Virus record (IMG/VR): IMGVR_UViG_3300037258_000150
Location: 35 to 64,034 of that record
DNA length: 64,000 bases
Source: a virus
Lineage: Duplodnaviria > Caudoviricetes
Reading direction: 5' to 3' (one strand)
Positions within the stretch are counted from its first letter, which is position 1; each line of letters opens with the position of its first letter. Of the stretch, positions 23,935 to 49,218 are shown piece after piece. A program made the translations under genes and the position numbers. The notes beneath the pieces were generated by a model that made no database searches, had not been told where the DNA came from, and was given only the letters and a program-made list of their open reading frames with translations.

Positions 23935-24308
23935 GAGGTGACTCCTGGGGATACCGTCACGGCGCCACTTAGGAACCGCGTGACACCCCCTGACGGATCG
24001 GTGAGCAATAGGTCGTAAACGCCAGACCACCAGGTGAACCCTTCGGTCGTCGCGGCGGGAATCGCGAGCGTGATCGTCCCGGCAGCGCCGCCCAAGGTGA
24101 TATCAGGGCTCGCGTCATAGAGCACGGTCGGCGACAGCGCGAAGGCTCGAATTTGCATGGTCGCCGTCCAGCCGGTGAGGTCCACCGGGGTCGGCGCGGC
24201 GCCCGCTGGTCCGCCGGGAACGGGCAGTGTGGTCCAGGTGAGGACTTTGGTCAGGGTCGCGCCCTGGGCTACACAAAGGTCATAGGTCGGGGTGCAGCAG
24301 CCACTCAC
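23931..24308 (-). CDS. BppU-N/LtfC-like Ig-fold fibre adaptor protein
   Basis: QGAT...PVDLTGWTATMQIR...GTITL.I...T.....GVYDL......VTRFLSG.VTVSP.VT. Confidence 0.8.
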   Translation of the reverse strand: MSGCCTPTYDLCVAQGATLTKVLTWTTLPVPGGPAGAAPTPVDLTGWTATMQIRAFALSPTVLYDASPDITLGGAAGTITLAIPAATTEGFTWWSGVYDLLLTDPSGGVTRFLSGAVTVSPGVTS

Positions 24309-26605
24309 GTGGACGGTCTCCCTGAAATCTCGAGCGCGCGGCGAATGGTCTCATCGGGGAAGTGAAGGAGTGGCTCGGTCGTTTTGTTGGATGCTTTTCG
24401 AGCGCTGTGCCAGCGGTCGAGGAGGCGGCTGACTAGGACCTCGTGGTCGACTTTGCCACCGGAGGTGCGCCCGCCAGCGGGCGGCGTTGCTCCCATGTCT
24501 ATACCAGCTCCTGGCGCAACCGCCTCTTGCGCGAATTTAAGTTTCGCTGCCTTCAACGCTGCCGCCGCCTTTGCTTCTCTTGCGTTCTTCAGGAGTCCGG
24601 AGCCTATTTTCTTAACGGCATAACCAACCGGTCCGGTGTGCGCAGCCCCGACATCGGCCGCATAATCTGCCAGTGTACCGGCGACTCCAGGGCTAGACGG
24701 AGCCGGCGGCGCCCCGAATCTTTGCAGCGTCAACGCGGTGTTTGATCGATTGACGGTTGCGGCCTTACCTTCGTCGTTCACATATCCGGATACTCGCTTT
24801 AACTGATCGGTCGATTCTGCGCTCTGAGGACTCATCAGAACGTCCGCCTTATTAACCATGGCATTACGTGCGTTGCGATAGGAGTCATTACGGAATGATC
24901 CACTGTCGAACTCATCTAGACCAGCGGAGTTACGAAGTTTGTTGAGCGCGGACGCTTCCACAGCTTGAGAGAAATCCGGATTCGACCCCAACAGCGTTTG
25001 CATACGAGCCACATAGGCTCTTGACGCGGTTTGGCCATTCCCGAGGAAATAGCGATCCATGAATGTGTCCGCCAGTGGCGACGGAACGCCGATCACATGC
25101 AGCCCGTTTGGACCCTTCGGCACGTTGTCATTTATCGCAGCCTCATAGGCCGGATTTTGCTCGATAGTGGAGAAGCGCGCTTTAGCAGCCTTGCGCGCTG
25201 TGTCAGCCAGACCCTTGAGATTCGACGCCTCATCTGACAGCGGCATATTCTCAAGTTCATTGCGCACGATCTCAGCCGCCTTGGCATCCGCTGGCGCCGC
25301 TCCGCGTTGAACGCCAGCGAGGTTGGTGCGCGCGTTCTCGAATGACTCAAACGACATCGGTTGGCCAGATGTGATGCCATCCATGATCTCGGAAATAACT
25401 GGATTTTGAGCGGCCGTCTTCGTCAGAAACCCTTTCGAGAGCGCCGCCGTTATAGAGTCGGCAGCTGTGCCGGTGTCAATCGGCATCGCTCCTGCGTTCT
25501 GATCCGCTAGGGCCTTATACTTGGTCCTGATGTCCTTGACGGCTTCATTGTCCTGACTCTTGATCGCGTCAACAGCCGTCTGGCCATGCTCGGGTGTGGA
25601 TCGCTGTACGATAGCTGGCGTAGCGCGCGTACGAATCTCGCCCATCGCCGCGCCAAGTTTCGCATTCTGGTCCGTGATAGATTTAGATAAGAGGCCCTGT
25701 GTGTCAGGATCTGCTCGCAGGTTCTTCTCGTCAGATATTTGTTGGGCATCGCCAATGGCCTGCCCTTTGCGCAACTGTAGCGGCTGCATACCATCCGGCA
25801 ACGGTAGAGTTTCAGCATCTATTTGCCGGAGAAGCGCATCGTGATTGATGTTCTTTGCATTCGCTACGACGTCCTTTAGTTCGGGTGACGTTCCGACAAG
25901 AGATGGCGCTGTAACAGCGGCCCCTACGTTCCCTTTCGAGGCGGCAACCTGAGCCGCGAGATTCTCCTCAGCTGTGGGAGTCGCAGACTTCAGCACCTCT
26001 TCGGGCGCTGAGGCGAACGCGCGCTCCACCAAGCCGGTAGCGCCGGCCGCTAGCGGGGCCGCCACTGGGGCGAGTTGCGCGAGATCGCCGCCTATACGCG
26101 TCGCGCCGTGAACGACACTGGCAAGTCCCGGCCTATTCTGCTTGAGGATTTCATCCTGCTCGACAATTCCCTGTCGCACTCGGTCGATATCGCCGGCCAC
26201 AGTAGTGCCACCGAGACCAGGAGCGCTCCCTATTTTCTGAATGAACGACTTGCCTGACTCATTCAATCCCGGGCTGATCGCCGGAGTTTCTGACGGTTCC
26301 CCACGCATGAACCGATACGCGTCCACGGCGGCATTCTCCGCAGAAGCCGGAACGTTTCCTATGGCCGTTCCGAGTACATCACCAACTCCTGCTCCGGTAG
26401 GTCCGGCGAGGTCGCCGCCTACTGCGGACAGGGCATTACCGAATCGCGATGTCGGCGCCGAAGGAGGATGCGGACTCGCTCCTGGTAATGCACCAGGATC
26501 GGCCTGCAACTCAAACCCTGAGGGTAGTCCAGATGATCCAGTTGGTGGTGTGCCTGGATCGTCCTCAAGCTGAAAACCAGCAGGAAGTCCGGAAGTGTCG
26601 CTCAC
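24305..26605 (-). CDS. Putative internal virion/DNA ejection protein
   Basis: Large helical Ala-rich protein with N-terminal LPxGFxL repeats; follows the ejection gene with GTGA coupling. Confidence 0.7.
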   Translation of the reverse strand: MSDTSGLPAGFQLEDDPGTPPTGSSGLPSGFELQADPGALPGASPHPPSAPTSRFGNALSAVGGDLAGPTGAGVGDVLGTAIGNVPASAENAAVDAYRFMRGEPSETPAISPGLNESGKSFIQKIGSAPGLGGTTVAGDIDRVRQGIVEQDEILKQNRPGLASVVHGATRIGGDLAQLAPVAAPLAAGATGLVERAFASAPEEVLKSATPTAEENLAAQVAASKGNVGAAVTAPSLVGTSPELKDVVANAKNINHDALLRQIDAETLPLPDGMQPLQLRKGQAIGDAQQISDEKNLRADPDTQGLLSKSITDQNAKLGAAMGEIRTRATPAIVQRSTPEHGQTAVDAIKSQDNEAVKDIRTKYKALADQNAGAMPIDTGTAADSITAALSKGFLTKTAAQNPVISEIMDGITSGQPMSFESFENARTNLAGVQRGAAPADAKAAEIVRNELENMPLSDEASNLKGLADTARKAAKARFSTIEQNPAYEAAINDNVPKGPNGLHVIGVPSPLADTFMDRYFLGNGQTASRAYVARMQTLLGSNPDFSQAVEASALNKLRNSAGLDEFDSGSFRNDSYRNARNAMVNKADVLMSPQSAESTDQLKRVSGYVNDEGKAATVNRSNTALTLQRFGAPPAPSSPGVAGTLADYAADVGAAHTGPVGYAVKKIGSGLLKNAREAKAAAALKAAKLKFAQEAVAPGAGIDMGATPPAGGRTSGGKVDHEVLVSRLLDRWHSARKASNKTTEPLLHFPDETIRRALEISGRPST

Positions 26606-29600
26606 GGCACCCACTGCCCGTTTATGTGGTAGAGCTTCTCTCCGGTCTTCGGATTGACCGCTATTTTGTCAGCGTTGGCGATCTTCTCGACCGGATAATA
26701 TAACTGTGACCACTTACCGAAATTCAGCGGCTGGTTAGTCGGGCTTTGGGGGTTTCCGATGTATGCCTTGGCACGTTTGCCGTTTGCGATCACGTTGGCC
26801 GCCACGCGCGCATTGACTGCGAGCAGGTCGTTGATGGTGTCGTCATTCATCTTGACGTTCGGGCTCATCTCCTCGAATTGCATACCGACTTCCTGCTGTG
26901 TGGCTGACGGGAAATTGGCTTTCGCGGATTGTGCTGCAGCGTTCCCCAAATATTTGGCCAACTCCTGAAAATTGGTCGAGTCAACTTTTCCGGTGAAGGG
27001 GCCGCTATACCTTGATGCGTCAGATAGAACGCCGCCATACGCGCCAACCGTCGCTCCCTGAGACTGCATGATCGATTGTGCGGCCCTTATGTATTGCAAT
27101 GTCGATGCCGCCACGGCAGTCGTGGCATCGGTGTCCGCAAGAAGTTTGGCGGCGTTGGCAAGATTAGTCTTCTGAGTATCCAGAGCCATTGGAGCTTGCG
27201 TAGTACCCTGTCTAACTGGTGCCGGAGGCACTCTGAATGACGTATCTGACAAGGCTTTAGCAAGGTATGGACTGACCGGTGATGTCTGTGAGTGGGCGAC
27301 CGGAATGACGCCTGCCGGGGACATCGCTAGCGCCCGCGCAGGCGTTTTGCCTGTGACTGCGGTTGACGGGGATGGCTGGTTACTAGTCGTTGGTGCGGCA
27401 CCAGGCCAATTCGGCAGCAGAGTCTGTGCGTAAGACTCTATGCTCGGCGCGTGATGTGCCTGCCATGCTGGCATCTGGGTAGACGTGCCGTCTGTGTTCG
27501 GTACGTTCACCAACTCCTGCGCCTTTGCCATCGCCGCTGACCGGTCAGACGGGGTAAATCCCTGCTGAGCGATCGGCCCAATCTCCGGCTGGTTCGTGCG
27601 TGTGTTCCTGACGATGCCGCCCTCGAGCGCTGTCCCGTCACCGGTCCATTGGCGTAGCGCATTGTAGCGGGCAAGCGCCGCCTGTCGCGCCGCCGGAGGG
27701 CTAGCCTGATCGGTGGCCGTGGCATATTGGGCATCGGCCGCCTGCTGGGCGGCGTTACGATTATTCTGCTGGTCGCGCTGGACTCTGGCCTGAAAGTCGG
27801 TATCCGCCTGCTGCGAAAACATCGTGCCGCCGACGGCCCAGTCATTTTTTATCGCAGCATCCTTGGCCGCTTGCTCCTCCGGGGTGCGGGCCTGATTGAC
27901 GAAGAACCGCGACCGATACTGCGCAGCGAGCCCTGCGGCCGTCTGCGCCGCGCTCGGTGAGGGCTGCTGCCCCGGGGATGCTGGCGGCGCCGGAGCCTGC
28001 GCTGAGGCGCTGGGGGTCGACGCAATGGTCGCTGGCGCAGGATTTATGGTCTGAGGCGGCGGCGTCGACTGCGGAGCGGCCGGCTGGGGCGCGAGTCCAC
28101 CAGGGGTGGGTGCAAACGCGTGCTGCGCGACACCGAGCTTGATGGCCGCCAAGCGGTTTGCGATCTGCGTGCTCTGCGCTGTCGCCTCCCGCTCCTGCGC
28201 TCGAGCGAGGCCTTCCTGCGTCGGCACGTAGGCATTCGCGGCCGCCTCGAGCCCTGCGGCAAGCGCGACACCAGGGTGGACGCTGCGCTCGGTGCCGGCC
28301 GCGCCGATGCCGGCCAGGATCGGCACGACGAGGCCCTTGTTGCGCCCCCACCAGCCGGCGAGGCCAGTTGCGGGCGCGGCCGCGGGTGCCGTGTCGGCCG
28401 CGGGCGGCGTGTCGGAGTCGGCATCCGTCGCATCCCCGCCGTCGTCAAACCCGCGCCGCCCGGCGACGCCGCCAGTGGCGAGCGCCTGGTTGCTGAACAT
28501 CGAGCCCATGAGGGAGCTCGTGTCATTGGGGTTGCTCATGTAGAGGATGCTCTGAAGACCCGTCGGCTGCTTGCCGGCGGCGGGGGCGGCTTTGAGCGTG
28601 TTCGTGTTCGGCTGATTGGGGATATTGATGTCCCCCTGCGGCTCGGCATAGGGGCCAGCGAGCCCGGCGCCCCCCGAGTACGGCATGCCGCCAGAGTCAT
28701 AGCCGCGGCGCACGGCACCACCGCGGTTCGCCATCATCACGGCGGCGGCTCCTACGTCTGCCGCGGCGTATTCGGCTGCAATGGCGGCGGCGGCTTCGGC
28801 AGCGGCGGTCGTCCCGGCTCCCACGGCAGCCGTCCCGGCGGCTCCTGCGGCGGCCGTCCCGGCGGCTTCGGCAGCGGCAGGAGCGGCGGCGCTTGCGGCG
28901 CTAGCAGCGGCAGGAGCTGCAGCGGCGGCCGCGTCACCGGCACCCGCGGCAGCTCCTGGGGCTGCAGCCACTCCGCTCGCCGCCGGAGCTGCCGTCGCGG
29001 TGGCTTCAGGAGCGCCGGCCGTGATGACGCCACTTGGCTGAAGGCCCGCAGCCGATAACGAAGACGAGGGAGCGACGCCAGTGGCGGCAGCGGGCTCTGA
29101 GACGACGCTGGTGGCGCCGGTGTCGTACCCCAAGCCGGCGTTGTACGAGTTCCAGGCGCTCTGAACAGCCGGATCCGTCGATCCGACGCCACTCGGTGCG
29201 GCTGAGGGAGCGCTCATGCTCTTGTAGAGCTTGTCGGCTTTCTCCGCCAGGCTAATCGACTGGCCTAGCTCACTCGACCCAGATGGAGGGGGTGAGGCGG
29301 GCGCATTCGTGACGGCAAGCGAATGTCCGCCGCCGCCGGTCGTCGAGTTGATCTGCCGGCGCTGCTGGCCGGATCCCGGCATGCTCGCGTACATCTGCTG
29401 CTGCGCCTGAAGCACTCCCGCAAGGCCCCCTCCAGTATCACGGTGCACGCGGCGCATCGGCACGACGCCCCCAGCATAGAAGTGCCCCTTGTTCGCCGCT
29501 TCCTGAGTCGCCTTCCCGTAGTCGACCACCTTGAAGCCGCCGGCGAGCCCGACGGCATGAGGATGCTTTTTCTCCACATCCTGAGCGATGAGTCCGATTC

Positions 29601-30585
29601 TCGTGCGCTCATCCTCGCCCATCTTGTAGGTGACGACATCCTGGCCGTCGAAGGTCTCGCCGATCTTCTTGATGTCGCGCTTGAGGCGTTTATCGCTGAA
29701 GAAGCCGCCTGGTTGAGTCGTGGTGGTCGTCGAGCCGGAGAGACTACCCGTCCCCTCGGAAATATCGGCTAACCACTGTCCTACCTGAAATGGATAGGAC
29801 TGTTGCTGCAAGAATTGGTTGTACGCGGCAGTATCTTGCGCCTGTTGAGTCTGCTGTTGTACGGTACCGGCGGAGATCTGCGCCTGCGCTCCGGCAAGAC
29901 CCGCTGACTGCGCGCCAGTCCCAAGCGCTCCAAGCTCGGATGCCGTGTTGGCTCCCTCTCCGTAGGCCGTCTGTCCTATATTTGCGAGTTGCTGCGCGCC
30001 GGCTAGTCCGATCTGCTGCTGCCCCTGCGCGGTGCTCAATGCGGACTGATATCCGGTATTTGCTATTCCGGAGATTATGTTGGCATTTGCTAGAGATTGC
30101 TGTTGCCCGAGATTCGCCGCGGCAATTCCCGTGCGATCGGACCCGAAGGCCCCAGACGTGATCGCATTGCCAAGCTGTCCTGCCTGCTGCTGCTGATTTT
30201 CCTGATTCTGGATCGCCTCCGTGCTACCGAGTACTGTTCCCAAATACGGCGACAGATATTGATCTATTTGGGAGCCAGTCAATGGGGCCGCGCTTTCTGC
30301 GGTTCCAATCTCAGCAGCGGTGTTTACTGGCGCTGTCGCCGCCTGGGTCGCTCCTAGCGTTCCGGTGGCTGCTCCGTAGTACGGCTGCGCTTCGTTGGCG
30401 GCTGCATTGGTCGCGGAGATTCCTTGTGACTGTTCGCTGTTGACTGGCGCCACAAATTCGCCACCGTATTTTTCAAACGGTGTCTGCGCTGTTTGATTTG
30501 CGGAGTTGACAACGCTCTGATATTGCGCGAGCACGGCGGGTGGCACGGCGACATTGGAGCTGGTGGTACTGGTCTTCCCGCCCAC
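26602..30585 (-). CDS. Putative DNA ejection protein with an internal peptidase S74 (intramolecular chaperone) domain
   Basis: MGGKTSTTS, YLSPY, GAFGSDR N-terminal domain; SDKRLKRDIKKIG...IGLIAQDVEKKHPHAV...VDY. Confidence 0.8.
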   Translation of the reverse strand: MGGKTSTTSSNVAVPPAVLAQYQSVVNSANQTAQTPFEKYGGEFVAPVNSEQSQGISATNAAANEAQPYYGAATGTLGATQAATAPVNTAAEIGTAESAAPLTGSQIDQYLSPYLGTVLGSTEAIQNQENQQQQAGQLGNAITSGAFGSDRTGIAAANLGQQQSLANANIISGIANTGYQSALSTAQGQQQIGLAGAQQLANIGQTAYGEGANTASELGALGTGAQSAGLAGAQAQISAGTVQQQTQQAQDTAAYNQFLQQQSYPFQVGQWLADISEGTGSLSGSTTTTTQPGGFFSDKRLKRDIKKIGETFDGQDVVTYKMGEDERTRIGLIAQDVEKKHPHAVGLAGGFKVVDYGKATQEAANKGHFYAGGVVPMRRVHRDTGGGLAGVLQAQQQMYASMPGSGQQRRQINSTTGGGGHSLAVTNAPASPPPSGSSELGQSISLAEKADKLYKSMSAPSAAPSGVGSTDPAVQSAWNSYNAGLGYDTGATSVVSEPAAATGVAPSSSLSAAGLQPSGVITAGAPEATATAAPAASGVAAAPGAAAGAGDAAAAAAPAAASAASAAAPAAAEAAGTAAAGAAGTAAVGAGTTAAAEAAAAIAAEYAAADVGAAAVMMANRGGAVRRGYDSGGMPYSGGAGLAGPYAEPQGDINIPNQPNTNTLKAAPAAGKQPTGLQSILYMSNPNDTSSLMGSMFSNQALATGGVAGRRGFDDGGDATDADSDTPPAADTAPAAAPATGLAGWWGRNKGLVVPILAGIGAAGTERSVHPGVALAAGLEAAANAYVPTQEGLARAQEREATAQSTQIANRLAAIKLGVAQHAFAPTPGGLAPQPAAPQSTPPPQTINPAPATIASTPSASAQAPAPPASPGQQPSPSAAQTAAGLAAQYRSRFFVNQARTPEEQAAKDAAIKNDWAVGGTMFSQQADTDFQARVQRDQQNNRNAAQQAADAQYATATDQASPPAARQAALARYNALRQWTGDGTALEGGIVRNTRTNQPEIGPIAQQGFTPSDRSAAMAKAQELVNVPNTDGTSTQMPAWQAHHAPSIESYAQTLLPNWPGAAPTTSNQPSPSTAVTGKTPARALAMSPAGVIPVAHSQTSPVSPYLAKALSDTSFRVPPAPVRQGTTQAPMALDTQKTNLANAAKLLADTDATTAVAASTLQYIRAAQSIMQSQGATVGAYGGVLSDASRYSGPFTGKVDSTNFQELAKYLGNAAAQSAKANFPSATQQEVGMQFEEMSPNVKMNDDTINDLLAVNARVAANVIANGKRAKAYIGNPQSPTNQPLNFGKWSQLYYPVEKIANADKIAVNPKTGEKLYHINGQWVP

Positions 30586-30587: not shown

Positions 30588-31304
30588 TTACACTCTCCGC
30601 TCCACTATCTTGTTGTGCTTACTGCAATTCTCAAACTCAGTGAGAATCTGCAGATTCCACGGTACATGCAGACCGTGCACGCCAACGCCGCGCAACGGCA
30701 CCTCGTGGTCGACGTGATGTTTGATTCCGGTCTGCGTCGTCCGCGCGGCGGCAATCTCGTAGAATTCCTGAATCTGCGCCTTCTGGATTGCGTTTAGCCA
30801 CGGAGGCACGGCGCGTGTCTCAGCTGCGCGGCGCCGTCCATTCTTGGCGCGTACAATGGATCGGTTGTTCTGCAGGTATCGGCGCTCGCGCGCCTTCTCC
30901 CTTTCGATATTGGCCAGACGAAATGCTTTGCGTGCAGCAAGTCGTTTGGCTTTATGTTTCTGGTAAGAACGACGCCTGATCTCTGCGGCACTCATCCTTG
31001 GTGTAGTACGTGGTGGCTTCGGCGCGCATGGGTGTGCATCCTTCCATTCCGCCGTACGAGCATATGCGCATTCCTTGCAAGAGTTGAGATAGCCATCGGC
31101 CATTCCTCTGTTCTTCGGAAACAGCTCGATTGACTTCTCGTTGCCACACTTGTTGCACGTCTTGACCTTCGGAGCGATGAAATTCTGCTCTTTCAGCGCG
31201 CGACGCTTGCTTGCGTTGCGTTTACGCGCCTCTACGGCTAGCTTTTGAAGAGCTGGCGTCATAGTCCATCCGCGCGGCGGCGCTCCTAGTCTGCGCTTCG
31301 TCAT
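30588..31304 (-). CDS. HNH homing endonuclease
   Basis: KTCNKC..K....F...SCKEC; HHVDHEVPLRG..V.GLHVPWNLQIL...N.SK.N. Confidence 0.9.
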   Translation of the reverse strand: MTKRRLGAPPRGWTMTPALQKLAVEARKRNASKRRALKEQNFIAPKVKTCNKCGNEKSIELFPKNRGMADGYLNSCKECAYARTAEWKDAHPCAPKPPRTTPRMSAAEIRRRSYQKHKAKRLAARKAFRLANIEREKARERRYLQNNRSIVRAKNGRRRAAETRAVPPWLNAIQKAQIQEFYEIAAARTTQTGIKHHVDHEVPLRGVGVHGLHVPWNLQILTEFENCSKHNKIVERRV

Positions 31305-31804
31305 GATACAACCTTATGGTCGCCCGTTTTGGCGCCCAACACCCAGAAACACCCCGCCGGCTCCCCGAGCAGCCTGCGGTAAAGCTCCACTTTCTGTTTG
31401 GTATTGCTATGACTCAACACACCGATGAGTAGCGGCAGCCCCATGCGCTCGGCAGTTGACTTACTGAACTGCACCAACTTGTTGGCGCGCCCTCCTTTCG
31501 CACTGCGAAATTCAGGCTTCACGAATAGCGTGCGCTCCTCCATGCAGATCTCATCGCTATAGGTCAGTGTGCCAATGACGAGCACGACTATGCCCTCGAT
31601 CTCCCCTCCTTCTTTCCCGATGCATCCCACCATTCCCTTGTCCAAGTTCAAGCACGGATAGATAGTCTTGACGAGATGCGATGCGGAGCAGTCGAAAAGG
31701 CTGTTCTCCTTCGCGGCCGCTATCGCCAGTTCCATGACTTCAGGGAGGTCGGCGAGCGTGCCGAGGCGCATGCGTAAGCCGTCGTAGATGGGCAGTTGCA
31801 GCAT
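31301..31804 (-). CDS. GNAT-fold acetyltransferase-like protein
   Basis: RLGTLADLPEV, LFVKPEFRS..GG.A..L; usual position before ejection genes. Confidence 0.7.
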   Translation of the reverse strand: MLQLPIYDGLRMRLGTLADLPEVMELAIAAAKENSLFDCSASHLVKTIYPCLNLDKGMVGCIGKEGGEIEGIVVLVIGTLTYSDEICMEERTLFVKPEFRSAKGGRANKLVQFSKSTAERMGLPLLIGVLSHSNTKQKVELYRRLLGEPAGCFWVLGAKTGDHKVVS

Positions 31805-31806: not shown

Positions 31807-32022
31807 CTAATCCAGCTTTGCACCTTTTGCGCGCGATCTCTCGACGACATCCTTGAAATGCTCTAGCGTCTCACCTTTGGTATGCGGTGGCGCTCCTGTT
31901 ATATCGACGCCGTGAAGATATCCGCGAATGCCAGGCGTCAATAAATCCCTAGATCCAGGCGTCTTGATGCCAAGACCGTCTAAAATACAGTCGAGAGCGA
32001 CTCTGTCGTCTTTCATGGTCAA
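31807..32022 (-). CDS. Hypothetical protein (lower-GC insert)
   Basis: Fills the gap between structural genes. Confidence 0.5.
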   Translation of the reverse strand: MTMKDDRVALDCILDGLGIKTPGSRDLLTPGIRGYLHGVDITGAPPHTKGETLEHFKDVVERSRAKGAKLD

Positions 32023-32987
32023 TCCCGCCTCGGCCCTGGAAGTTTCTGTAGCGTGCCAATGAGTTCTTGACGCACGCGCTTGACGAACGAGTCGAGCACG
32101 CGATGGCCGGTGTCAATATCGCCGTGGCCCACCCGCTTGACCTGAGACGGGGAGATCACCCATTCCCCCCCGGCCGCGACAATCGGCACGCCTGATACTT
32201 CTCCGCCAGCGGCCTTGCGCGCGCGGGCCTTGAGTTTCTTGAGCGCCGCGCGCACGCCGGGATGCAGCGGTAGTTTTTCGGCTTCATCAAGACCCACCCA
32301 TTCAGCCCTGTCGTGCTCGTCGTTGAGTTCAGGCTTGAACTCATCCGGAGCATGGGCCAAGTAGGTGGTGAACGCAACGTTCTCCCGGTCGCTGTGCATG
32401 AAGGGCGAGAGGCCACCATCGTGCTCGTAGCCGGTCTCTTCGCGCACTTCGCGGCGAGCGGCATCTTCGGGACGCTCGCCCTTCTCGATGTGGCCCGCCG
32501 GCAATGCCCACTCTCCTGCGTGCTCTTGCCCCTTGCGGCGCATCAGCAGTACCTCACGTTTAGGCGAGAGAAAGAGCACGCCAGCGGCCTTGATGCGGCC
32601 GCCCCTGGCGTAGGTGACGGGTAGGCCGTAGACACCACCCGTTTGGCCATAGGGCGAAGTGCCCGCGTAGGGCTCACCGCCAAAGGTGCGGCGCAGGACC
32701 TTGAAGCCGGCGAGCGTGTTACCTTCGCCCCCGGCGCTAACGATATCAGCTGGTAAAACGTAACTGCCTGACTCCACCGTCATCGGCAGGTGATCCGTGC
32801 GGCCGGACACGGCGGCATGGATGGGGCCTACGTGAAAGCGGCGCGTGATGTCCGTGCCGCCGCCGTCTTGCCGGTGCTTACGGGCGACATTGAGAGCCGC
32901 CGCGATTGACTGATCGCGCGGATGGCCGGCGTCCTCCATTTCCTCGATGTTGTGACCGATGTTTGTTTTACCTGGAAGTAACGGCAT
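32019..32987 (-). CDS. Putative internal virion protein with an inserted Nudix hydrolase domain
   Basis: GRTDHLP.....GSYVLPADIVS..GEGNT and GGEWVISP segments surround the Nudix box GHIEKGERPEDAARREVREETG. Confidence 0.85.
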   Translation of the reverse strand: MPLLPGKTNIGHNIEEMEDAGHPRDQSIAAALNVARKHRQDGGGTDITRRFHVGPIHAAVSGRTDHLPMTVESGSYVLPADIVSAGGEGNTLAGFKVLRRTFGGEPYAGTSPYGQTGGVYGLPVTYARGGRIKAAGVLFLSPKREVLLMRRKGQEHAGEWALPAGHIEKGERPEDAARREVREETGYEHDGGLSPFMHSDRENVAFTTYLAHAPDEFKPELNDEHDRAEWVGLDEAEKLPLHPGVRAALKKLKARARKAAGGEVSGVPIVAAGGEWVISPSQVKRVGHGDIDTGHRVLDSFVKRVRQELIGTLQKLPGPRRD

Positions 32988-33658: not shown

Positions 33659-34042
33659 CTATGACCAACTTATGCTGACTGACATTCCACTTCCGGGCAC
33701 CACGAGTATCCCAGAGTCGCAGGCCATATTCACCACATACGGCTCACCGTTACTCGCCGCAGTCTCCGGAATTATCCACAGCGGCATTACCTGCGCGATA
33801 CTGGCCGAGTCGTAGATCATCCCCGTGGTCGAGCCGGCGGTGATGATGCTGACGGAGGCGACTCTTCCGGGGGATGTCTTGACTACCTTGGGGGCCGTGA
33901 TCGCCTCGGTGGTGGAGGCGCCGTTGACGTCCTTAAATGCCTGCGTCGCGCCGTTTAACGCAATGACGAGATTCTTGATGCTCGTCAGAATGTCAGAGAG
34001 AGAGGCTCCAGGCTGCGGTGTTTGTGTCGTCGGGTTGGGCAT
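33659..34042 (-). CDS. Small virion (tail) protein
   Basis: ASLSDILTSIKNLV helix plus beta domain ending GILVVPGSG; follows the nozzle gene. Confidence 0.65.
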   Translation of the reverse strand: MPNPTTQTPQPGASLSDILTSIKNLVIALNGATQAFKDVNGASTTEAITAPKVVKTSPGRVASVSIITAGSTTGMIYDSASIAQVMPLWIIPETAASNGEPYVVNMACDSGILVVPGSGMSVSISWS

Positions 34043-37643: not shown

Positions 37644-37675
37644 GATCGCATCCTCATCATGCATCGTGGTTAGGG

Positions 37676-37716: not shown

Positions 37717-37730
37717 GCTGCAGCACGATC

Positions 37731-37796
37731 CGCCAGCACCCCCAGCTGCTGAACGTAGGCGTTGTATGAGAGAGGAGTGGTGGCTGAGGCTGTCAT
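37731..37796 (-). pseudogene. Orphan 5' fragment of an alternative allele of the adaptor gene
   Basis: MTASATTPLSYNAYVQQLGVLA aligns with MSSPNPLSFNAWVQTIGSLA of 36106-36888. Confidence 0.7.
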
Positions 37797-41175: not shown

Positions 41176-41307
41176 TCATGCCACCCTTGGGAGATATCGA
41201 AAGGTACGCCCTGCAGCGCTCTTTCGCACTCCACGGCAGACTTCAGCATCCGGGCGCCAGTGCTCGTATACGTAGTAATCAACACGGATTAGATCAGGCT
41301 TGCTCAT
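41176..41307 (-). pseudogene. Truncated GIY-YIG homing endonuclease remnant
   Basis: YYVYEHWRPD matches FYVYEHWRSD of 36885-37643; the ORF ends after 43 aa. Confidence 0.7.
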
Positions 41308-42014
41308 CTGAAGTACGACGAAACCTGAGGGCTGATGTAAATTTGAGACGTTTCCGTGTTCTGCCGCGTCGCCACCCCCCACGCTTCGTCAGCCATCACC
41401 TTAAGTCCCGGCGCACGATCTGGAGCCCAGATTGCGGCGAGTCGGGTCGCGAGTGCGAAGGCAAACCACTCCAGAAAATAGACAGGAATTTCAGCGCTCT
41501 GGCCGCCCTGCAAATTTGAATCTTGAATCTGGCGCAACCGGTAATACTTGAATGCTGCCTGTTGGCCATTAGGCGTTGTCCAAAGGGTTACGGTAGGTGA
41601 TAACAAACGATCCATCCAATACACAGTCGGTGCTCCTTCCTGCTGTTTGTTTGGATAGTTTGCATACTCCGTCCTTGAAATAGGAGTCATGATCCTGTCT
41701 ATCTCTTGCTGACCATTGTTGATGGTGTAATATGCATCCAGAATGACTATGGTGTTGTTTGGTACCTGATAAGTGGCTTGACCTTGAACCAGAGTCACTT
41801 GCTGAAGGTCTACACCCCACAGATTCACGCCATCCGCGCTGGCGCGCATCATCAGCATGTTGGTCGCGATGCGCGCGTCCTCAAGATGAGATTGCGTCAG
41901 GGCGGTGCGCCGTATACCACACAGACCATAGCTGTATAGAATTACCCCTCCTACGCCCGGAGCGAAGTTATACGTCCCGGAGGTATTCGGCGGATTGGGC
42001 GCGAAGCTATTCAC
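41304..42014 (-). CDS. Head-tail connector/adaptor protein
   Basis: TSGTYNF, GVNLW, ISRTEY..YPNK..G.P, LA..LA; GTG overlaps the upstream TAG. Confidence 0.72.
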   Translation of the reverse strand: MNSFAPNPPNTSGTYNFAPGVGGVILYSYGLCGIRRTALTQSHLEDARIATNMLMMRASADGVNLWGVDLQQVTLVQGQATYQVPNNTIVILDAYYTINNGQQEIDRIMTPISRTEYANYPNKQQEGAPTVYWMDRLLSPTVTLWTTPNGQQAAFKYYRLRQIQDSNLQGGQSAEIPVYFLEWFAFALATRLAAIWAPDRAPGLKVMADEAWGVATRQNTETSQIYISPQVSSYFR

Positions 42015-42268
42015 TAGCCCACCCGCCAAAAGGTGCCGTCGAAGAAACATGGCACGACGAAGGTCCCCCCGCCGCTCAGGAGCGCATAGAAGTCGGTGCT
42101 CGTCGAGTCCGTCACCATCGCTCGAGTGCCCTGCGGGGATGAGGGGAGCTGCCCGACGGCGAGCGGGGTGGTGAAGGAGGCGGAGCCGGCGGGCCCCGGG
42201 ATGCCCTGCGGGCCCGGGGTCGCGACCTCAATGAGGTCGGAGGTGATCTCGCTGACGGAGACGGCCAT
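42014..42268 (-). CDS. Small collagen-motif trimeric virion protein
   Basis: IEVATPGPQGIPGPAG; GTRAMVTD...GGG...VPCFFDGTFWRVG. Confidence 0.7.
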   Translation of the reverse strand: MAVSVSEITSDLIEVATPGPQGIPGPAGSASFTTPLAVGQLPSSPQGTRAMVTDSTSTDFYALLSGGGTFVVPCFFDGTFWRVG

Positions 42269-43032: not shown

Positions 43033-43362
43033 TCAATCCTCGCCGAAACCGAGTTCGCCCTTCATCACCTTGCGGCCCGGGGCATCCTCTCCCTTGCGCG
43101 CGCTCGTGAACGGGTTCGCATCCGAGGTCGAGCGGCCGCCTGACTTGCGCGGCTTGCGGCCGGCGTGGTGCATGGGCTCGTGGCCCTCGACCTTGCCAAC
43201 CTCGGTCTTGCCGCCTCTCTTGCGCTTCGCCCGGCCGCCCTTCTTCAGCTCCTCGGCCTCGGCGTCGATCTTCTTGGCGTCGGTGCGCGCTTCCGGCTTG
43301 GTCTTCTCGTCCTCTTCGGCCTCGTTGGTGCCGCCGGTCTCACGGTGCTTGCGACCCTTCAT
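43033..43362 (-). CDS. Small highly charged internal-head-like protein with xxxGG motifs
   Basis: RETGG, LKKGG, RKRGG, RKSGG. Confidence 0.65.
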   Translation of the reverse strand: MKGRKHRETGGTNEAEEDEKTKPEARTDAKKIDAEAEELKKGGRAKRKRGGKTEVGKVEGHEPMHHAGRKPRKSGGRSTSDANPFTSARKGEDAPGRKVMKGELGFGED

Positions 43363-43981: not shown

Positions 43982-44896
43982 TTAAGAGGTCGGCAGGTTC
44001 GCGTAGAGCGCGCGCCAATTGAAGTAGCTTAGCGAGTATCTCTCGTAGCCCTTCGTTAGCAAATTATCGGTGACGAAGTCCACCTGCATGTCCGTCTCGA
44101 ACGCGATGCGCTCCATGTAGGAGAGGCCCGCGACGTTGGTGAGCATGAACCACGCGTAGAACGAGGTGAGAAAGTCCATCACCATGTAGCCCTCGGGGAC
44201 GCCACCGGCGGTCGAGAGGATCGCGTTCACGTCGTTGTCAGCGGTGCCCGGGCGCAGCTCCGTCTTCGTCAGGCGAATCGCCACCGGCTCCAACTGCGGC
44301 GGTACGATCAGTTTGCGTCCGCGCGCGAACATCTTCAGGTTCGCCTGGTCCCGGAAGTTGTAGCGGATGTTGATCATCGCGGCGAGCAGGGTCGCCTCGT
44401 TCAGATCAACCTGCGTGGAGGGCGTATTGGCCACGACGCCGCCGTCGATCGGGTGCGAGGCCGAGGCGAGTGCGACGCCGTCGCCGCCCACGTTCGCGTT
44501 GTACGTGCTGCAGGTGTTGAGCACGTTCGCCGCGTAGATTTCCTTGGTCTGGTGGAAGGACTCCATCAGTCCGAGGTTCGACGGGTGGAACTGCGTCTTG
44601 TAGAGGTTGTCGTCGATGGCCTTGCGGGTCATCGCATACCCGAGCGCGATCTCCACGTGCTCCTGGTTGTAGACGTAGCGCTCACCGGCGTTGTTGTCGA
44701 ACTGGGTCTGACCGCCTTCGGTCTTCAGCTGCGCGAGCCCCAAGTATCGCATCTCGGCGGTGCGTTCGAGGGCGAGCTTGGAGTTGAACTTGGTGAAGAC
44801 CTTGTCGTACTGGCTCGGGATCTGCTCGTACTTTCCCGTGATCCCGCGAAGGCCGGGGAGGAGCAGGTCTTTGATCGCACTTAAGTTGACGGCCAT
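43982..44896 (-). CDS. Major capsid protein (HK97 fold, Mu gpT-like family)
   Basis: LLPGL, K.EG....FD, ALGY..T...I.DNLY, GDGVAL....HP, LIVPP.L, ERYS. Confidence 0.88.
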   Translation of the reverse strand: MAVNLSAIKDLLLPGLRGITGKYEQIPSQYDKVFTKFNSKLALERTAEMRYLGLAQLKTEGGQTQFDNNAGERYVYNQEHVEIALGYAMTRKAIDDNLYKTQFHPSNLGLMESFHQTKEIYAANVLNTCSTYNANVGGDGVALASASHPIDGGVVANTPSTQVDLNEATLLAAMINIRYNFRDQANLKMFARGRKLIVPPQLEPVAIRLTKTELRPGTADNDVNAILSTAGGVPEGYMVMDFLTSFYAWFMLTNVAGLSYMERIAFETDMQVDFVTDNLLTKGYERYSLSYFNWRALYANLPTS

Positions 44897-45662: not shown

Positions 45663-45665
45663 CTG

Positions 45666-45905
45666 TCATCCCTTCAATGCGACGGAATTGCGCCAGTTGG
45701 CATAAGCGGCGAGCGCCCGACTTCCACCAGGGCTCACCGTGTCACCCAGGCTCGCCAGCGCCTGCTCGAGCGCGCTGACACGAGCCTCGAGCGACCGCGT
45801 TGCAGGCTCGGTCGCCGGGATCGTTTCGGACTCGCCGGTGACGGTAGCCGTCTCGGTGTCGCTCGCGGGGATATCGGTCGCGTCGTCGGTCATGTCGGTT
45901 CTCAC
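45666..45905 (-). CDS. Hypothetical protein
   Basis: Acidic N-terminus, LEARVSALE coil. Confidence 0.55.
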   Translation of the reverse strand: MRTDMTDDATDIPASDTETATVTGESETIPATEPATRSLEARVSALEQALASLGDTVSPGGSRALAAYANWRNSVALKG

Positions 45906-46489
45906 TCCGGAATCGGGATGCTGCCGTAGGTCTTCTTGACGGTGGCCATGGGATTGCCCTTGTTGTCGCGCTCGAATTGCCCTGCGGGAGCGGCGCCCAA
46001 CTGCTGCTCCTTCTGGCGCACCTGCTCACGCGCCCGGCGATTATCCTGCGCGCGCACCTCATCGGTGATCTCTTTCGGGCGCTCCATCAGCAGGCATCCC
46101 TTGCGCGGGATGTGCGCGCCGGTCCAACCGGGCGGCACGAGCTGCGGATGGCGGCTCGCGGGCACCGGGTCCCAGCCGCGTTGAGCCAAGGTGACCTGGT
46201 AGGAGTGATCGGGCTGGCCGAGCACCGTCTCGCGCTTCCACTCGTACGACCAGCCGTCGGGGATGATGGCCGGGTCGATGTAGAACTCGTCCGTCCCCTC
46301 CCCGAGACCGTCGCCCAAATGCTCACGCAGCTGCGCGGCGCGGGCAGCAGCGCGGGTACGCGGGTCGCTCTCGGACTGGGTCGACTCGGCTTGCGACTCG
46401 GCATCGGCAGCTGCGGAAGTGGCCTCGCCAGGCAGTGGATGGATTCGCGGGCGGCCAGGGCCGCGCTTGATGGGCTCTTCGGTGCTCAC
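45902..46489 (-). CDS. Conserved head-module protein
   Basis: IPDGWSYEWKR...G, GW.PVPA.RHP, G.LLMERP. Confidence 0.7.
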   Translation of the reverse strand: MSTEEPIKRGPGRPRIHPLPGEATSAAADAESQAESTQSESDPRTRAAARAAQLREHLGDGLGEGTDEFYIDPAIIPDGWSYEWKRETVLGQPDHSYQVTLAQRGWDPVPASRHPQLVPPGWTGAHIPRKGCLLMERPKEITDEVRAQDNRRAREQVRQKEQQLGAAPAGQFERDNKGNPMATVKKTYGSIPIPE

Positions 46490-47484
46490 GACAACTTTCC
46501 TTCCTTTTTGAGGGCCATTTTGTTGCGGGCATACTCCTCGACGGTCATGCCCATATTCTGCGCGACCTCGACCTCATCGGCGCTCAAGCGCACGACGTTG
46601 GAACGGGAGCCGTTGCCTGCCGTGCCTGAACGACTGACGGGGGCGGCCGCGGGGGCGGTCTGGCGCCCTCCGGTAGCGGCCGCGGCACTGGGATCGGCGA
46701 GGGGATCCGTCTCTCCTGCGTGCGCGACTCCGTTGCCGGCGCCGTTGGTGGTGGCTGCGGCGGTGAGATCGAGTGTTTTCTCGACTGATCTGAAATAATC
46801 GTCGGTGTCTGCCTTATATCCCCGTGCCGTCGCCAACTGATGCGCGGCGATCATTTGCTGGTTTTTGTTCTCGTCGCGAATGAATTCCGGATGCGCGCGG
46901 AGCCATTCACGGCTGCGTGGATATTCAGGGCCTATGGTGGAAATGTATTGCTCGACAGCATCGACAGGGACCCGCGCCGTGGGCTTGGGCTGCCTTTCGA
47001 GGTGCGTCTTGCCGGCTTCGAGCTGGGCGAGCTTCGCGGAATTGTCGCCCATCTGCCGCTGTAGCTTCGCGGCACCGGCCCAGTCCTGAGCGGCCATCGA
47101 CTCGGCGTATTTGGACTCGAGCGCATCGTTCGCCTGGGTGACGGTGGCGATCGCGTTCTTGACCAAGTCCAATTCTGTCGTCTGGACGCGCCCGCGGGCC
47201 TCCGCTTCCGCCTTTGAGGCCTCGCGGGCCCGGGTTTCGGCGGACGCGCGGGCGGAATCGGCCGCCTCGCGAGCGGCGCGCTCGTCTTTGAGCTGCTTCT
47301 GCAGCTTCTCGATGCCCTGTTCGGGGGTCAGAGCGTCTGCGGCGCCATTTTTGGCCGTCACTTCCGGGTCGACGATGACTTTGGGCTCTGCGGCTGCCTT
47401 CTCGGACTGCTTTTCGGCCTTTTTCGCCGCAGCAGCATCGAGTGCCTCGATGTCGACTGTCACTTCTTCGGTTGCGGTTGCCAT
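46486..47484 (-). CDS. Scaffolding protein
   Basis: Long coiled coil; C-terminal VRLS..E...A..MG.T.EEYA. Confidence 0.75.
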   Translation of the reverse strand: MATATEEVTVDIEALDAAAAKKAEKQSEKAAAEPKVIVDPEVTAKNGAADALTPEQGIEKLQKQLKDERAAREAADSARASAETRAREASKAEAEARGRVQTTELDLVKNAIATVTQANDALESKYAESMAAQDWAGAAKLQRQMGDNSAKLAQLEAGKTHLERQPKPTARVPVDAVEQYISTIGPEYPRSREWLRAHPEFIRDENKNQQMIAAHQLATARGYKADTDDYFRSVEKTLDLTAAATTNGAGNGVAHAGETDPLADPSAAAATGGRQTAPAAAPVSRSGTAGNGSRSNVVRLSADEVEVAQNMGMTVEEYARNKMALKKEGKLS

Positions 47485-47487
47485 GGG

Positions 47488-47931
47488 TCACCAAATGACG
47501 CGCGGATCTGCCACACGCATGCGGATCTGGTCATCGTATACGAGGCGACACTGCACAAAGTCCTGAATTTGCAGCCCTTCGACATCCGAGTTGATGTCGA
47601 GTGCCCAGGTATCAGACGGGCGCACGACAACCCAGTCGTGAAGTTTGATGTTGATGCCATATTCGACGCCGGTGTCAGCGGTTTGGCGCACGAACCGGCA
47701 CGCGGAGCCGATCTTGACGACGAGTCCGCACTTGCCCTGATAGCGATCCTCCTTCAAATTCTGCTGCGGCAGAACGATGCCGCCAGTGGTCTTCTCCGGT
47801 CTCATGTAGATGGCGAGCAGGACCTCGTTCTGCGCGATCTCGAGGTGCGAAAGGTCGCCTAACTTCTCGAGCAACTCGCGCCTGGGATCATATTGCGGCT
47901 CACTCACCTTGTGTAGCGTCGCTGACTTCAT
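47488..47931 (-). CDS. GroES-like co-chaperonin
   Basis: VLL...RPEKTTGGIVLP...GLVVKIG...DWVV; start re-assigned to ATG 47931. Confidence 0.8.
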   Translation of the reverse strand: MKSATLHKVSEPQYDPRRELLEKLGDLSHLEIAQNEVLLAIYMRPEKTTGGIVLPQQNLKEDRYQGKCGLVVKIGSACRFVRQTADTGVEYGINIKLHDWVVVRPSDTWALDINSDVEGLQIQDFVQCRLVYDDQIRMRVADPRVIW

Positions 47932-47938
47932 TGACTCG

Positions 47939-48142
47939 TTACCCCTGATCGATGATTGTTTGAATTTCCGGGCAAAACTCATTGGTGACGCGCTTCAGTG
48001 CTGCGATGCGCCCGACGTAATTCTGGTATTTGGCGTGATCGGTGACGGCGATCCCGACTTCAAGGTCATTGCGCAAGCGTTCGAGTTCTTGGGCAATGCG
48101 CTTCTTTAACTCACGCTCGAATCTAGCGTCATAAGAGCTCAC
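47939..48142 (-). CDS. Small conserved head-module protein
   Basis: L..G...D.A.Y...VG.I.AL motif preceding the GroES-like gene. Confidence 0.65.
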   Translation of the reverse strand: MSSYDARFERELKKRIAQELERLRNDLEVGIAVTDHAKYQNYVGRIAALKRVTNEFCPEIQTIIDQG

Positions 48143-49218
48143 GACCGGGCGGCGGCTTTCGCCTTCTCGAGCCTCCCTAAGCCACTGCCGGCGCCAGCGT
48201 CGATCGGATAGGCGCGCCCGCCAGCGGCGCGCATCGGCATGGTAGCCCCGGGTGCCATGGCGGCAGGGGGCATCATTGGCGGCGGCGGTGCGCCCTGATG
48301 AAGTCCCACGGGGGCTTGACCCGGCGGTGGCATCATCGGGCGCGGCGGCATGGGAGCGCCCGCACCCGCACCCTGGGGAGCGATGATGATGTTGACGTTC
48401 GTGCCCTTCTTCGTGCGCCCGCCACCCTTGCGCGCAAGGCGGCCGCCAGTGGGGCGAGTCCCGTCGTTGATCGCGGCGCGGTCGACTGAGCCGCCAGACT
48501 TCTTGTGCAGCCCCTTCAGGGTCTCGGCGAGATGTGCTTTCTTGGCTTCCTTCGGATTCTTGCTGTGCTCGGCCTTTTCGAGCTTCTTCTCGGGGATGTC
48601 GTGACCCGCCTTGACGTGCAACTCCTTGCGCAAGGAACCGGGGTGTTTGATCGCGTCGGCGATCCAGTGATCCGTACTGCCACCAGCCTTGCGCTCAACG
48701 CGACCGCCGGAGCACTTGCCGCACTTGCAGCCCATCTCGTGGATGAGTGCCCGGTCCTGCGCCTCGTCTTTATGGACCTTGCCGCCCTCGGTCCGCATGG
48801 GGCGGTGCAGCATGCCGAGCTTTTGCTGCGGGGTGAGGGCGCCACCGATCAGCTTGTGGACGCGCTCGGCCATGGCTTCGGCGCGGCCGCCGCGTTTCAT
48901 GCCGCCCACGTGTTTCGTGCCGGCGCGGTCCTCGTTCGCCGCCTTGACGTTGCGGTTGATGAGCGAGTCGGCGGTGAGCGCGCCTCCTGCGGCCCGACGC
49001 TTGCGGTCCGCACGCGGAGCCGTTGCCATGCCTTCGACGCTGCCGCCGCGGCGGTACTGGCGGCGCGAGATGGGGCGGGGTCCGGTTTGAACGTCACCGT
49101 TGAGTGCGCCTTCGGGACTGTAGCCGCTGGCGTCGACGCGCGCGTGAGGGTCGGAGCGGCTCAGGCGCTCGACCTTCTCTTTGGCGGCGGCGCGGGCCTT
49201 TTCTGACATTTCGCTCAT
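48139..49218 (-). CDS. Basic low-complexity internal-head-like protein with many xxxGG motifs
   Basis: YRRGG, RAAGG, MKRGG, RTEGG, RKAGG, KKSGG and others; embedded WIADAIKHPGSL module. Confidence 0.7.
   Translation of the reverse strand: MSEMSEKARAAAKEKVERLSRSDPHARVDASGYSPEGALNGDVQTGPRPISRRQYRRGGSVEGMATAPRADRKRRAAGGALTADSLINRNVKAANEDRAGTKHVGGMKRGGRAEAMAERVHKLIGGALTPQQKLGMLHRPMRTEGGKVHKDEAQDRALIHEMGCKCGKCSGGRVERKAGGSTDHWIADAIKHPGSLRKELHVKAGHDIPEKKLEKAEHSKNPKEAKKAHLAETLKGLHKKSGGSVDRAAINDGTRPTGGRLARKGGGRTKKGTNVNIIIAPQGAGAGAPMPPRPMMPPPGQAPVGLHQGAPPPPMMPPAAMAPGATMPMRAAGGRAYPIDAGAGSGLGRLEKAKAAARS

Follow-up and report, generated by a model that had tools for sequence, protein, structure and literature searches.

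Phage T4 carries an N-terminal capsid targeting sequence on its internal proteins and on Alt, present once per protein and cut at Leu/Ile-x-Glu by the prohead protease gp21. In adenovirus, African swine fever virus, and poxviruses, cysteine proteases of clan CE cut core polyproteins at Gly-Gly-X, after the two glycines. Here we describe a short peptide centered on Gly-Gly that recurs in the proteins of a tailed-phage genome from IMG/VR (record IMGVR_UViG_3300037258_000150, 64,034 bases). The analyzed DNA, hereafter the window, is a 64-kb stretch that makes up nearly the whole record and encodes 65 proteins. In five of them, the peptide marks the joints of proteins that appear to be packaged in the head or injected.

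Several described systems come close to this arrangement. Polyvalent proteins are chains of conflict-related enzyme modules (ART-PolyVal, InPase, GNAT, M15, and Nudix among them) that are encoded beside virion genes, are thought to be injected, and are proposed to be processed by built-in metallopeptidases (Iyer, Burroughs, Anand, de Souza, and Aravind 2017, PMC5512222). In T5, mass spectrometry places the cut that divides the tape measure protein pb2 (giving pb2* and pb2C) after R1127 (Linares et al. 2023, PMC10038345). The lambda tape measure gpH loses about 14 kDa in its Gly-rich C-terminal region, which leaves a gpH* estimated at about residues 1–710; the catalyst is stated as unknown, and the tape measures of T5 and lambda are given as the only ones shown to be cut (PMC12617516, 2025). 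Cargo protein C1 (gp45) of crAss001 is injected, with a small domain that holds on the portal, and is threaded toward the tail (Bayfield et al. 2023, PMC10172136). In the literature on phage internal proteins, polyvalent processing, and tape-measure cleavage, covered mostly at abstract level, we found no description of the junction peptide.

The Gly-Gly motif is a selected protein-level signal

The motif has the seven-residue consensus [R/K/F/Y/M/H]-[A/K/R]-x-G-G-x-[V/I/A/T]; positions are counted outward from the two glycines. We searched for it with a loose regular expression ([FYHRKM]..GG) and a strict one (loose plus.[VIAT]), using 1000 shuffles for each of the 65 window proteins; the expressions and the set of five proteins were derived from the same window data that served for testing. 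All motif instances listed in a preliminary description of this DNA were present in the translations. The proteome-wide enrichment test that it had proposed showed enrichment by count for three proteins: 48139–49218 (loose, 12 against 1.9 expected, with 0 of 1000 shuffles reaching 12; strict, 8 against 0.5), 32019–32987 (loose, 4 against 1.3, p = 0.03; strict, 3 against 0.3, p = 0.007), and 43033–43362 (loose, 3 against 0.8, p = 0.04). It did not hold by count for 26602–30585 (loose, 4 against 1.8, p = 0.12, not significant) or for 24305–26614 (1 against 1.2, no enrichment).

Two of five proteins without enrichment by count, and an expression chosen after seeing the data, are what would be expected if Gly-rich basic linkers resembled a motif by composition alone. 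We consider this explanation practically negligible, as the context is enriched even when the glycine pair is taken as given. The loose context surrounded 24 of the 49 GG sites in the five proteins but 19 of 140 in the other 60 (Fisher p = 1.7e-6), and the strict context 15 of 49 against 6 of 140 (p = 4e-6); leaving out the 359-residue product of 48139–49218, the loose context was still found at 12 of 36 sites (p = 0.012). Because the pattern had been defined on window data, we fixed the expressions and applied them to all 81 coding sequences of the nearest phage record, the uncultured MW202675.1. The result was replicated, with 32 of 77 against 14 of 82 sites for the loose context (p = 8e-4) and 21 of 77 against 5 of 82 for the strict one (p = 4e-4). 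Motif positions are also kept across about 60% identity and synonymous codon changes, and Gly-rich fiber-like proteins lack the context: 20110–24030 has 25 GG and 2 loose matches against 2.0 expected from shuffles, and 14118–16199 has 10 GG and 0 loose matches.

The motif glycines are encoded by all four codons (GGC, GGT, GGA, and GGG), and the codons of the first motif, flanking ones included, differ among 16 related genes, indicating that selection on the motif acts at the protein level. The same synonymous variation rules out a DNA-level recombination signal as its cause. Together, these data confirm that the motif is a real, selected protein-level signal typical of the five proteins named in the preliminary description: it is enriched given GG, and it repeats in MW202675.

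The motif delimits exchangeable modules at disordered joints

The clearest case is the product of 32019–32987 (minus strand; Pfam NUDIX, 3e-24). From its N terminus it consists of a helix pair (residues 1–40), RQDGG, an N unit (residues ~54–103), a linker, YARGG (126–130), a Nudix domain (132–249), KAAGG (258–262), and a C unit (263–322), so that the Nudix domain lies exactly between two motifs, as had been noticed earlier. This Nudix hydrolase module (32241–32594, minus strand) is inserted cargo, identified by Pfam, by Foldseek, by an AlphaFold2 (AF2) model, and by its Nudix box, G-x5-E-x7-R-E-U-x-E-E-x-G-U, which is matched by GHIEKGERPEDAARREVREETGY at residues 165–187. Foldseek with the Nudix-containing model returned Nudix enzymes only; the top matches were Ap4A hydrolases and RppH, both at E about 1e-9 to 1e-10, and Dcp2. 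The model has a mean predicted local distance difference test (pLDDT) score of 73, with a confident Nudix domain that has a hairpin and a pair of helices on either side. The protein's three motifs all fall where pLDDT is below 50, directly beside folded parts.

The two flanks are an internal duplication (DHLPMTVESGSYVLPADIVSAGGEGNTLAGFKVLRRTF versus SGVPIVAAGGEWVISPSQVKRVGHGDIDTGHRVLDSFV). The N unit (32679–32828, minus strand) has the pattern GPIH..GRTDHLP..SGSYVLPADIVS..GEGNT.AGFKVLRR.F and, in the model, strands at residues 67–72 and 76–78 and helices at 80–86 and 91–102. The C unit (32022–32201, minus strand), with the pattern GVPIVAAGGEWVI.P..V..VG.GD.D.GH.VLD.FV...LPGP..D, forms the C-terminal end of the protein; within it, the string A-A-G-G-E-W-V is a hairpin turn between strands 266–271 and 276–278. 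In alignment A1, both flanks are better conserved than the Nudix domain itself. Some of their Asp, His, and Glu residues are invariant, and the carrier fold may resemble that of ribbon-helix-helix proteins. Pfam at E ≤ 1 gave no match on either flank.

MW202675 has a Nudix-less version, a conserved virion protein of ~190 residues in which the flanks are joined by a linker and KAAGG; the Nudix domain is kept in the homolog of an Acidisoma prophage. Of 6774 candidates compared with the whole protein, 1042 are homologs at E ≤ 1e-5. Phmmer with the C unit against 1.84 billion representatives gave at least 1500 cluster representatives at E ≤ 1e-3 and 619 at E ≤ 1e-10; in all 150 matches listed, from proteins of 94–1495 residues, the match ended 5 or fewer residues from the C terminus. 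As the C unit always ends cargo-bearing proteins, it looks like a carrier or anchor rather than a reader of the motif.

This bears on the proposal, made in the preliminary description, that the motif is read by the domain containing the segment GRTD..GSYV.PAD.VS. That segment and its C-terminal twin turned out to be the halves of the conserved virion protein whose MW202675 version lacks Nudix, and the neighboring motifs are not docked on the units in the AF2 model, where their pLDDT is below 50. The supposed reader domain therefore looks, from sequence comparison, like a split carrier into which a Nudix module has been inserted. We regard it as very unlikely that the hairpin-helix units bind or cut the motif on other proteins. 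Such a role would fit their conservation beyond that of Nudix, their invariant Asp, His, and Glu, and their co-occurrence with motif proteins (n = 2: MW202675 has both, and in Caulobacter phage RW this query did not find the carrier and the head-module region examined showed no Gly-Gly protein); the corresponding T5 stretch, moreover, has been called a zinc metallopeptidase motif (PMC3326045). It does not fit the invariable place of the units at the ends of cargo-bearing proteins, which is that of a carrier, nor the fact that the H-x-x-E of T5 and lambda is not kept (VAAGGEW and VESGSYV in the carrier), nor the undocked motifs. A sequence search of carrier profile A2 against solved structures found no relative at E ≤ 1. 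A complex prediction of both carrier units with residues 40–125 of the repeat protein scored 0.00, which weighs neither way on binding.

Longer homologs of the Nudix protein show how modules are added. Eight of 10 inspected contain one more module, each with an additional [R/K/H]AxGG at its boundary; this module is ART-PolyVal in P0200 and PF19593 in P0148 and P0154, the rest being unassigned by family. Among the 85 listed carrier-family proteins of at least 280 residues, 14 carry Pfam cargo (ART-PolyVal five times, InPase three times, and NUDIX, GNAT, lysozyme, M15_4, DNA-ligase adenylation, nucleotidyltransferase, and ketoacyl synthase domains) and 71 gave no Pfam match at E ≤ 1e-5. We counted motifs per 100 residues in 14 carrier-family proteins that together hold 15 Pfam domains: the density was 0.25 inside domains (5 in 1986 residues), 1.82 within 35 residues of them (18 in 989), and 0.81 elsewhere (28 in 3451). 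Ala occupies position −2 at 49% of 999 GG sites in 147 proteins of the family. In MW202675, three large proteins encoded between the portal gene and the repeat protein carry GNAT, Peptidase_M15, ART-PolyVal, and InPase domains, with motifs between domains and at one C terminus (...HARGGVAK); a single chain joins the cell-wall peptidase M15 with GNAT and ART modules.

The AF2 model, the homologs, and the density count thus agree with the polyprotein-like build that had been suggested for the internal proteins: the motif lies in disordered joints and delimits exchangeable modules, and injected proteins are accordingly built like polyproteins. These results show that the phage marks the flexible joints of head-packaged or injected proteins with a seven-residue peptide, and that a cargo module, when gained, lost, or swapped, takes one copy of the motif with it.

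Disordered linkers at domain borders are also where a plain structural joint would be expected, that is, a Gly-Gly turn or hinge that allows modules to be stored, unfolded, and threaded through portal and nozzle and that needs no dedicated reader. The hairpin turn formed by A-A-G-G-E-W-V inside the C unit is in keeping with this, and tape measures and ejection proteins alike must pass through the tail channel. A hinge needs the glycines only, however. That a bulky residue is conserved at −3 as well, along with Ala at −2 and Val/Ile at +2, suggests that the peptide is recognized, and we consider the hinge explanation unlikely.

A scan of genome contigs with carrier alignment A2 as profile gave 39 loci; a scan with the single portal sequence found nothing. 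Related prophages in cultured Rhizobium and Acidisoma strains (Rhizobium lusitanum P1-7, Rhizobium sp. BK316, and Acidisoma cellulosilyticum HW T5.17) share the gene order and encode both the carrier and short repeat proteins, which makes the family open to experiment.

Motif copies in the repeat protein and in ejection-type proteins

The gene directly after the portal gene (48139–49218, minus strand) encodes a mostly disordered protein of 359 residues with an isoelectric point (pI) of 10.5 and 12 motif copies; its Atlas model has a mean pLDDT of 0.47. Its parts are an H..GCxCxxC cluster, the WIADAIKHPGSL module, a Pro/Met-rich stretch, and a conserved C-terminal ...GLGRLEK tail. We found 1959 homologs at E ≤ 1e-3 among 8000 candidates scored and no Pfam match at E ≤ 1. 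In alignment A3 (44 sequences of this family), 32 columns are invariant, 10 of them being glycines of the motif, and the stretches between motifs vary, some being replaced outright, as is the WIADAIKHPGSL module in P0010, P0012, and P0036. In the window protein, this module lies exactly between motifs (RKAGG – WIADAIKHPGSL...LKGLH – KKSGG), in agreement with the preliminary description. In 15 of 18 related viral loci, the gene of a motif-rich homolog follows that of the portal; the remaining three contigs stop ~1.3 kb or less past the portal gene, and two loci of the set (L005 and L006) look like duplicates.

In a prophage of Rhizobium lusitanum P1-7, the WIAGAVKHPGAL module is free-standing as an 88-residue open reading frame (ORF; L077, minus strand, 1426–1692) with YASGG before it. 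It ends at the residue aligning with position −3 of the window protein's next motif, a single case (n = 1) that we counted in favor of processing. The H..GCxCxxC cluster (IHEMGCKCGKCSGG, residues ~160–170) lies between two motifs and hardly varies in the family; it may form a small zinc knuckle.

A second basic protein, of 109 residues (43033–43362, minus strand, downstream of the capsid gene; pI 9.7), has four motif copies (RETGG, LKKGG, RKRGG, and RKSGG). Its counterparts are a 118-residue ORF in L008 and a 121-residue ORF in the Acidisoma prophage L074.

The two remaining motif proteins are of ejection type. The larger one (26602–30585, minus strand, 1327 residues) matches the PHROG annotations "DNA ejection protein" and "virion structural protein" and is laid out as an N-terminal domain, a Peptidase_S74 domain, FYAGG 72 residues later, an Ala-rich region, an ANRGG/YDSGG pair, a LATGG/FDDGG pair, and a long C-terminal part. 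The S74 domain (29551–29697, minus strand, residues 297–345; PF13884 at 5e-9) begins with SDKRLK at residues 297–302, that is, with the catalytic Ser...Lys pair of such domains. Of seven homologs scanned, Pfam finds S74 in five, and an [FYK]AxGG stands 67–72 residues after the S74 start in all four (of seven examined) in which the expression located that start. S74, a self-cleaving intramolecular chaperone domain, usually stands at the C terminus of tail fibers; here it lies mid-protein in an ejection-type protein. An internal S74 domain would need a second cut for release, and we counted this for processing as well. In some relatives, the paired motifs stand before an SLT or Hydrolase_2 module. 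The Ala-rich low-complexity stretch (residues ~540–620) has SLT at its place in MW202675 and Hydrolase_2 in L064.

The other ejection-type protein (24305–26614, minus strand, 769 residues) has a single motif near its C terminus, RTSGG at residues 716–720, followed by a conserved tail of ~50 residues; MW202675 has RKSGG at the matching place. Similar short, helix-like C-terminal tails (...DVSKALALTRSFTKR, ...IDRALSLTSRYTAR..., ...DVSDALALTRRYVKN, ...IRRALEISGRPST) occur on several cargo proteins, namely window 24305–26614, L001 12532–15075 and 15117–17813, L014 15143–17494, L022 16287–17276, and L027 3161–4738, and a like AAL.VARK helix stands before the first motif of the carrier. This shared tail may be a second tag and is perhaps the real loading signal.

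The protease search and the GroES-like gene

No prohead protease was found by Pfam (65 proteins), PHROGs (18), or NCBIfam (7), as the first inspection of the window had suggested. The only peptidase families detected by Pfam in the window were M15_4 (12229–12579) and S74, and no clan CE cysteine protease was among its proteins. To our knowledge, S74 acts only as an intramolecular enzyme, and on this ground we ruled it out as a trans-acting cutter.

The gene 47488–47982 (minus strand), with weak Cpn10 matches, was also considered as a hidden protease or specific reader and ruled out; it is GroES-like and has a counterpart in Caulobacter phage RW, which occurs there without the motif proteins. 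RW shares homologous head genes, the GroES-like one included, and Gly-Gly proteins were not found in the RW head-module region examined, suggesting that no head gene is specific to the motif.

The predicted mobile loop of the GroES-like protein, KTTGGIVLP, itself fits the motif pattern. The motif might then mimic the GroES mobile loop (K-x-x-G-G-I-V-L) and recruit host GroEL to fold or refold large cargo. Relatives of the GroES-like protein fit the expression too, some junctions have hydrophobic residues after the glycines (FYAGGVVP, YAEGGIV, and FADGGIV), and a 1973 paper reportedly speaks, in its title, of host involvement in T5 tail-protein cleavage. Most window copies, on the other hand, read GG-[K/R/S]-[V/A] and continue with a polar residue, giving no hydrophobic triplet; the expression is loose enough to fit 19 of 140 background GG sites; and RW has the GroES-like gene without the motif. 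We consider mimicry extremely unlikely.

Processing at the motif is the preferred explanation

In the T5 pb2 translation, the mapped cut lies at ...NSFVPR|AEGGMMYPGVSYQMGEHGTEVV, i.e. FVPR|AEGGMMYP, between motif positions −3 and −2; the 1219-residue protein has only two such motifs. R-A-x-G-G is kept at the place of the cut in three of three Demerecviridae tape measures examined, including those of Vibrio phages Chloris (42% identity) and D391 (37%). Lambda gpH has FATGG (733–737)...GEFVF...YATGG (778–782), an arrangement like KAAGG ... GGEWVI of the carrier.

The preliminary description had also likened the carrier segment to an element of tape measure proteins, and this likeness proved weak. 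A hidden Markov model (HMM) of the C unit scored 5.0 bits on gpH residues 741–771, a value reached by 0 of 500 gpH shuffles, yet shuffles of T5 pb2 reach 5.4 bits. Hhalign gave E = 0.044 at a probability of 1.2%, and its comparisons with gpH and pb2 were not significant. TIGR01541 matched gpH at 1e-134 and none of the five motif proteins or two further window proteins at E ≤ 1.

We consider it most probable, at roughly 40%, that the motif is a processing site cut by an enzyme yet to be recognized. We favor this reading because T5 cuts pb2 inside such a motif (R|AEGG) and because each junction has one motif, the linkers are exposed, and cell-wall and cytoplasmic enzymes share one chain in relatives. 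The peptide would be a site-specific processing signal, cut just before Ala as in pb2. Cutting would free the modules from the carrier and from each other, either after assembly or after injection; separation of M15, GNAT, and ART in MW202675 would let each act in its own compartment, and the 359-residue protein would yield short basic peptides remaining with the DNA. Since the phage has no recognizable protease, the enzyme responsible would come from the host or be a cryptic activity of the phage itself. Cleavage at the motif in this phage is plausible.

Several observations weigh against processing. The sole measured cut at such a motif is the single mapped site of T5 pb2, for which an older mapping placed the cut after Val1148 (cited in PMC3326045), and the carrier unit gave no match at the expected place of pb2 by hhalign or HMM. 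Tblastn of the phage collection with the carrier homolog P0253 matched two uncultured records only, and no cut has been observed in the family. The protease search of the window with Pfam, PHROGs, and NCBIfam came back empty. Some motifs stand at protein ends, where a cut would remove few residues: one MW202675 protein ends ...HARGGVAK-stop, the 359-residue family ends ...AYGG-stop or ...AYG-stop, and 43033–43362 begins MKGRKHRETGG. The range of residues at position −3 (R, K, F, Y, M, and H) is broad for the P1 site of a protease. Finally, gp45 of crAss001 is described as one chain from portal to tail barrel, cleavage being unmentioned in the available text (PMC10172136).

Some of these observations would suit the main rival, an uncut docking or tether tag that binds a site in the head (capsid wall, scaffold, or portal) or the DNA, so that the modules and the multivalent 359-residue protein are loaded and held. 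The lack of a recognizable protease in the window, the motifs at extreme protein ends, and the presence of 12 copies in a single disordered, basic protein whose gene adjoins that of the portal are all in line with such a tag, as is cargo C1 of crAss001, which a small domain fastens to the portal wing, with cleavage unreported in the available text (PMC10172136). One tag per chain would suffice, yet nearly every junction has one. The motif also occurs in tape measure proteins, which are outside the head, and, judged from the head-module region of RW, no head gene is specific to it. Acidic junctions such as YADGGEV mean that DNA binding cannot be general. We regard a docking tag as possible but doubtful.

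Returning to processing, its widest form would be one code, bulky residue-Ala-x-Gly-Gly, common to the tape measures of T5 and lambda and to the head cargo of short-tailed phages, cut by a host or cryptic activity, with a split hairpin-helix carrier that takes any enzyme between two copies for injection. We put this forward tentatively and would not expect it to hold in full. If true, it would account for the cuts in T5 pb2 and lambda gpH as well.

Genomic context

The motif genes lie in a structural module at ~24–54 kb of the window, in which every gene is on the minus strand. It includes the terminase (52283–53914), the portal (49437–51785; Pfam SU10_portal, 3e-13; 63% identity to the MW202675 portal), a scaffold-like protein (46486–47484), a head-module protein of 195 residues (45902–46489), the major capsid protein (43982–44896), a nozzle-like protein (34042–36102), and a GNAT protein (31301–31804), and the module also holds fiber-like genes. 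In sequence searches against solved structures, the 195-residue protein reached only 0.087, to an esterase, and the capsid protein gave no match at E ≤ 0.01. Two SU10-type adaptor paralogs (41304–42050 and 36106–36888, both on the minus strand; Pfam 4.8e-6 and 3.1e-11) recall the two adapter rings described for phi24B.

Three endonuclease-like genes break the structural module (30588–31304, 32990–33655, and 36885–37796, of the endonuclease VII/HNH, HNH, and GIY-YIG types, respectively), and their third-position GC is below that of their neighbors. The last of them, GIY-YIG/NUMOD3 homing-endonuclease-like, begins with MTASATTPLSYNAYVQQLGVLA, which resembles the start of the downstream adaptor 36106–36888, MSSPNPLSFNAWVQTIGSLAVE, as if the 5′ end of the adaptor gene had been duplicated by a homing-endonuclease insertion. 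A class 3 lipase gene (9572–10480, minus strand) lies among early or accessory genes.

Comparison with known systems

Should the motif be a processing or loading signal, phages would exchange their payloads as cassettes, each made of a module and a junction peptide. In genomes of uncultured phages, injected cargo modules, of which many are likely counter-defense enzymes, could then be located and bounded simply by means of the peptide, and there would be a concrete handle on how the tape measures of T5 and lambda are cut.

In Gly-Gly-X core processing, too, GG sites punctuate precursors, there those of DNA-associated cores; unlike in that system, no clan CE protease was found in the window, and the T5 cut precedes A-x-G-G. 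The T4 targeting sequence is likewise a short peptide on unrelated packaged proteins that is tied to loading and cleavage, but the window motifs are internal and multiple, and no prohead protease was found in the window.

For the cargo protein of crAss001, the available text mentions neither a Gly-Gly motif nor cleavage of gp45 (PMC10172136), in contrast to the arrangement proposed here. In the Atlas, the named cluster nearest to P0253 is crAss_CARG1 (score 0.82), which is a lead only; with PF25725, none of 34 carrier-family members matched at E ≤ 1, and the Pfam copy used may not hold that model.

The tape measures share the motif itself. Lambda gpH has FATGG ... GEFVF ... YATGG where the carrier has KAAGG ... 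GGEWVI, but the gpH site is not exactly mapped, the similarity of the carrier unit amounts to 5 bits, and TIGR01541 misses the seven window proteins scanned. The RAEGG of T5 pb2 compares with RAAGG (twice), KAAGG, and YARGG in the window; the pb2 cut likewise separates a C-terminal module of an ejected protein, and no protease is known for it. Unlike the cargo described here, pb2 is a tail protein with one site, whereas the window has head cargo with many sites, and the flanks are not detectably homologous.

The polyvalent proteins offer a parallel in gene content. In position, the window cargo genes, one set behind the portal gene and another behind the nozzle gene, fit the placement of polyvalent proteins among virion genes, with which they would be delivered, and the post-portal proteins of relatives carry ART-PolyVal, InPase, GNAT, and M15 Pfam domains. 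Pfam found neither ART-PolyVal nor InPase in the window proteins; both are present at homologous positions in relatives. Polyvalent proteins have at least two enzymatic domains: the window proteins have one each (Nudix in 32019–32987 and S74 in 26602–30585), and relatives have more (GNAT, M15, and ART in MW202675; InPase and M15_4 in P0343). In the main text of PMC5512222, the words "glycine" and "linker" do not occur. Unlike polyvalent proteins, the chains described here have no built-in metallopeptidase, and they appear to be organized by a junction peptide and a split carrier.

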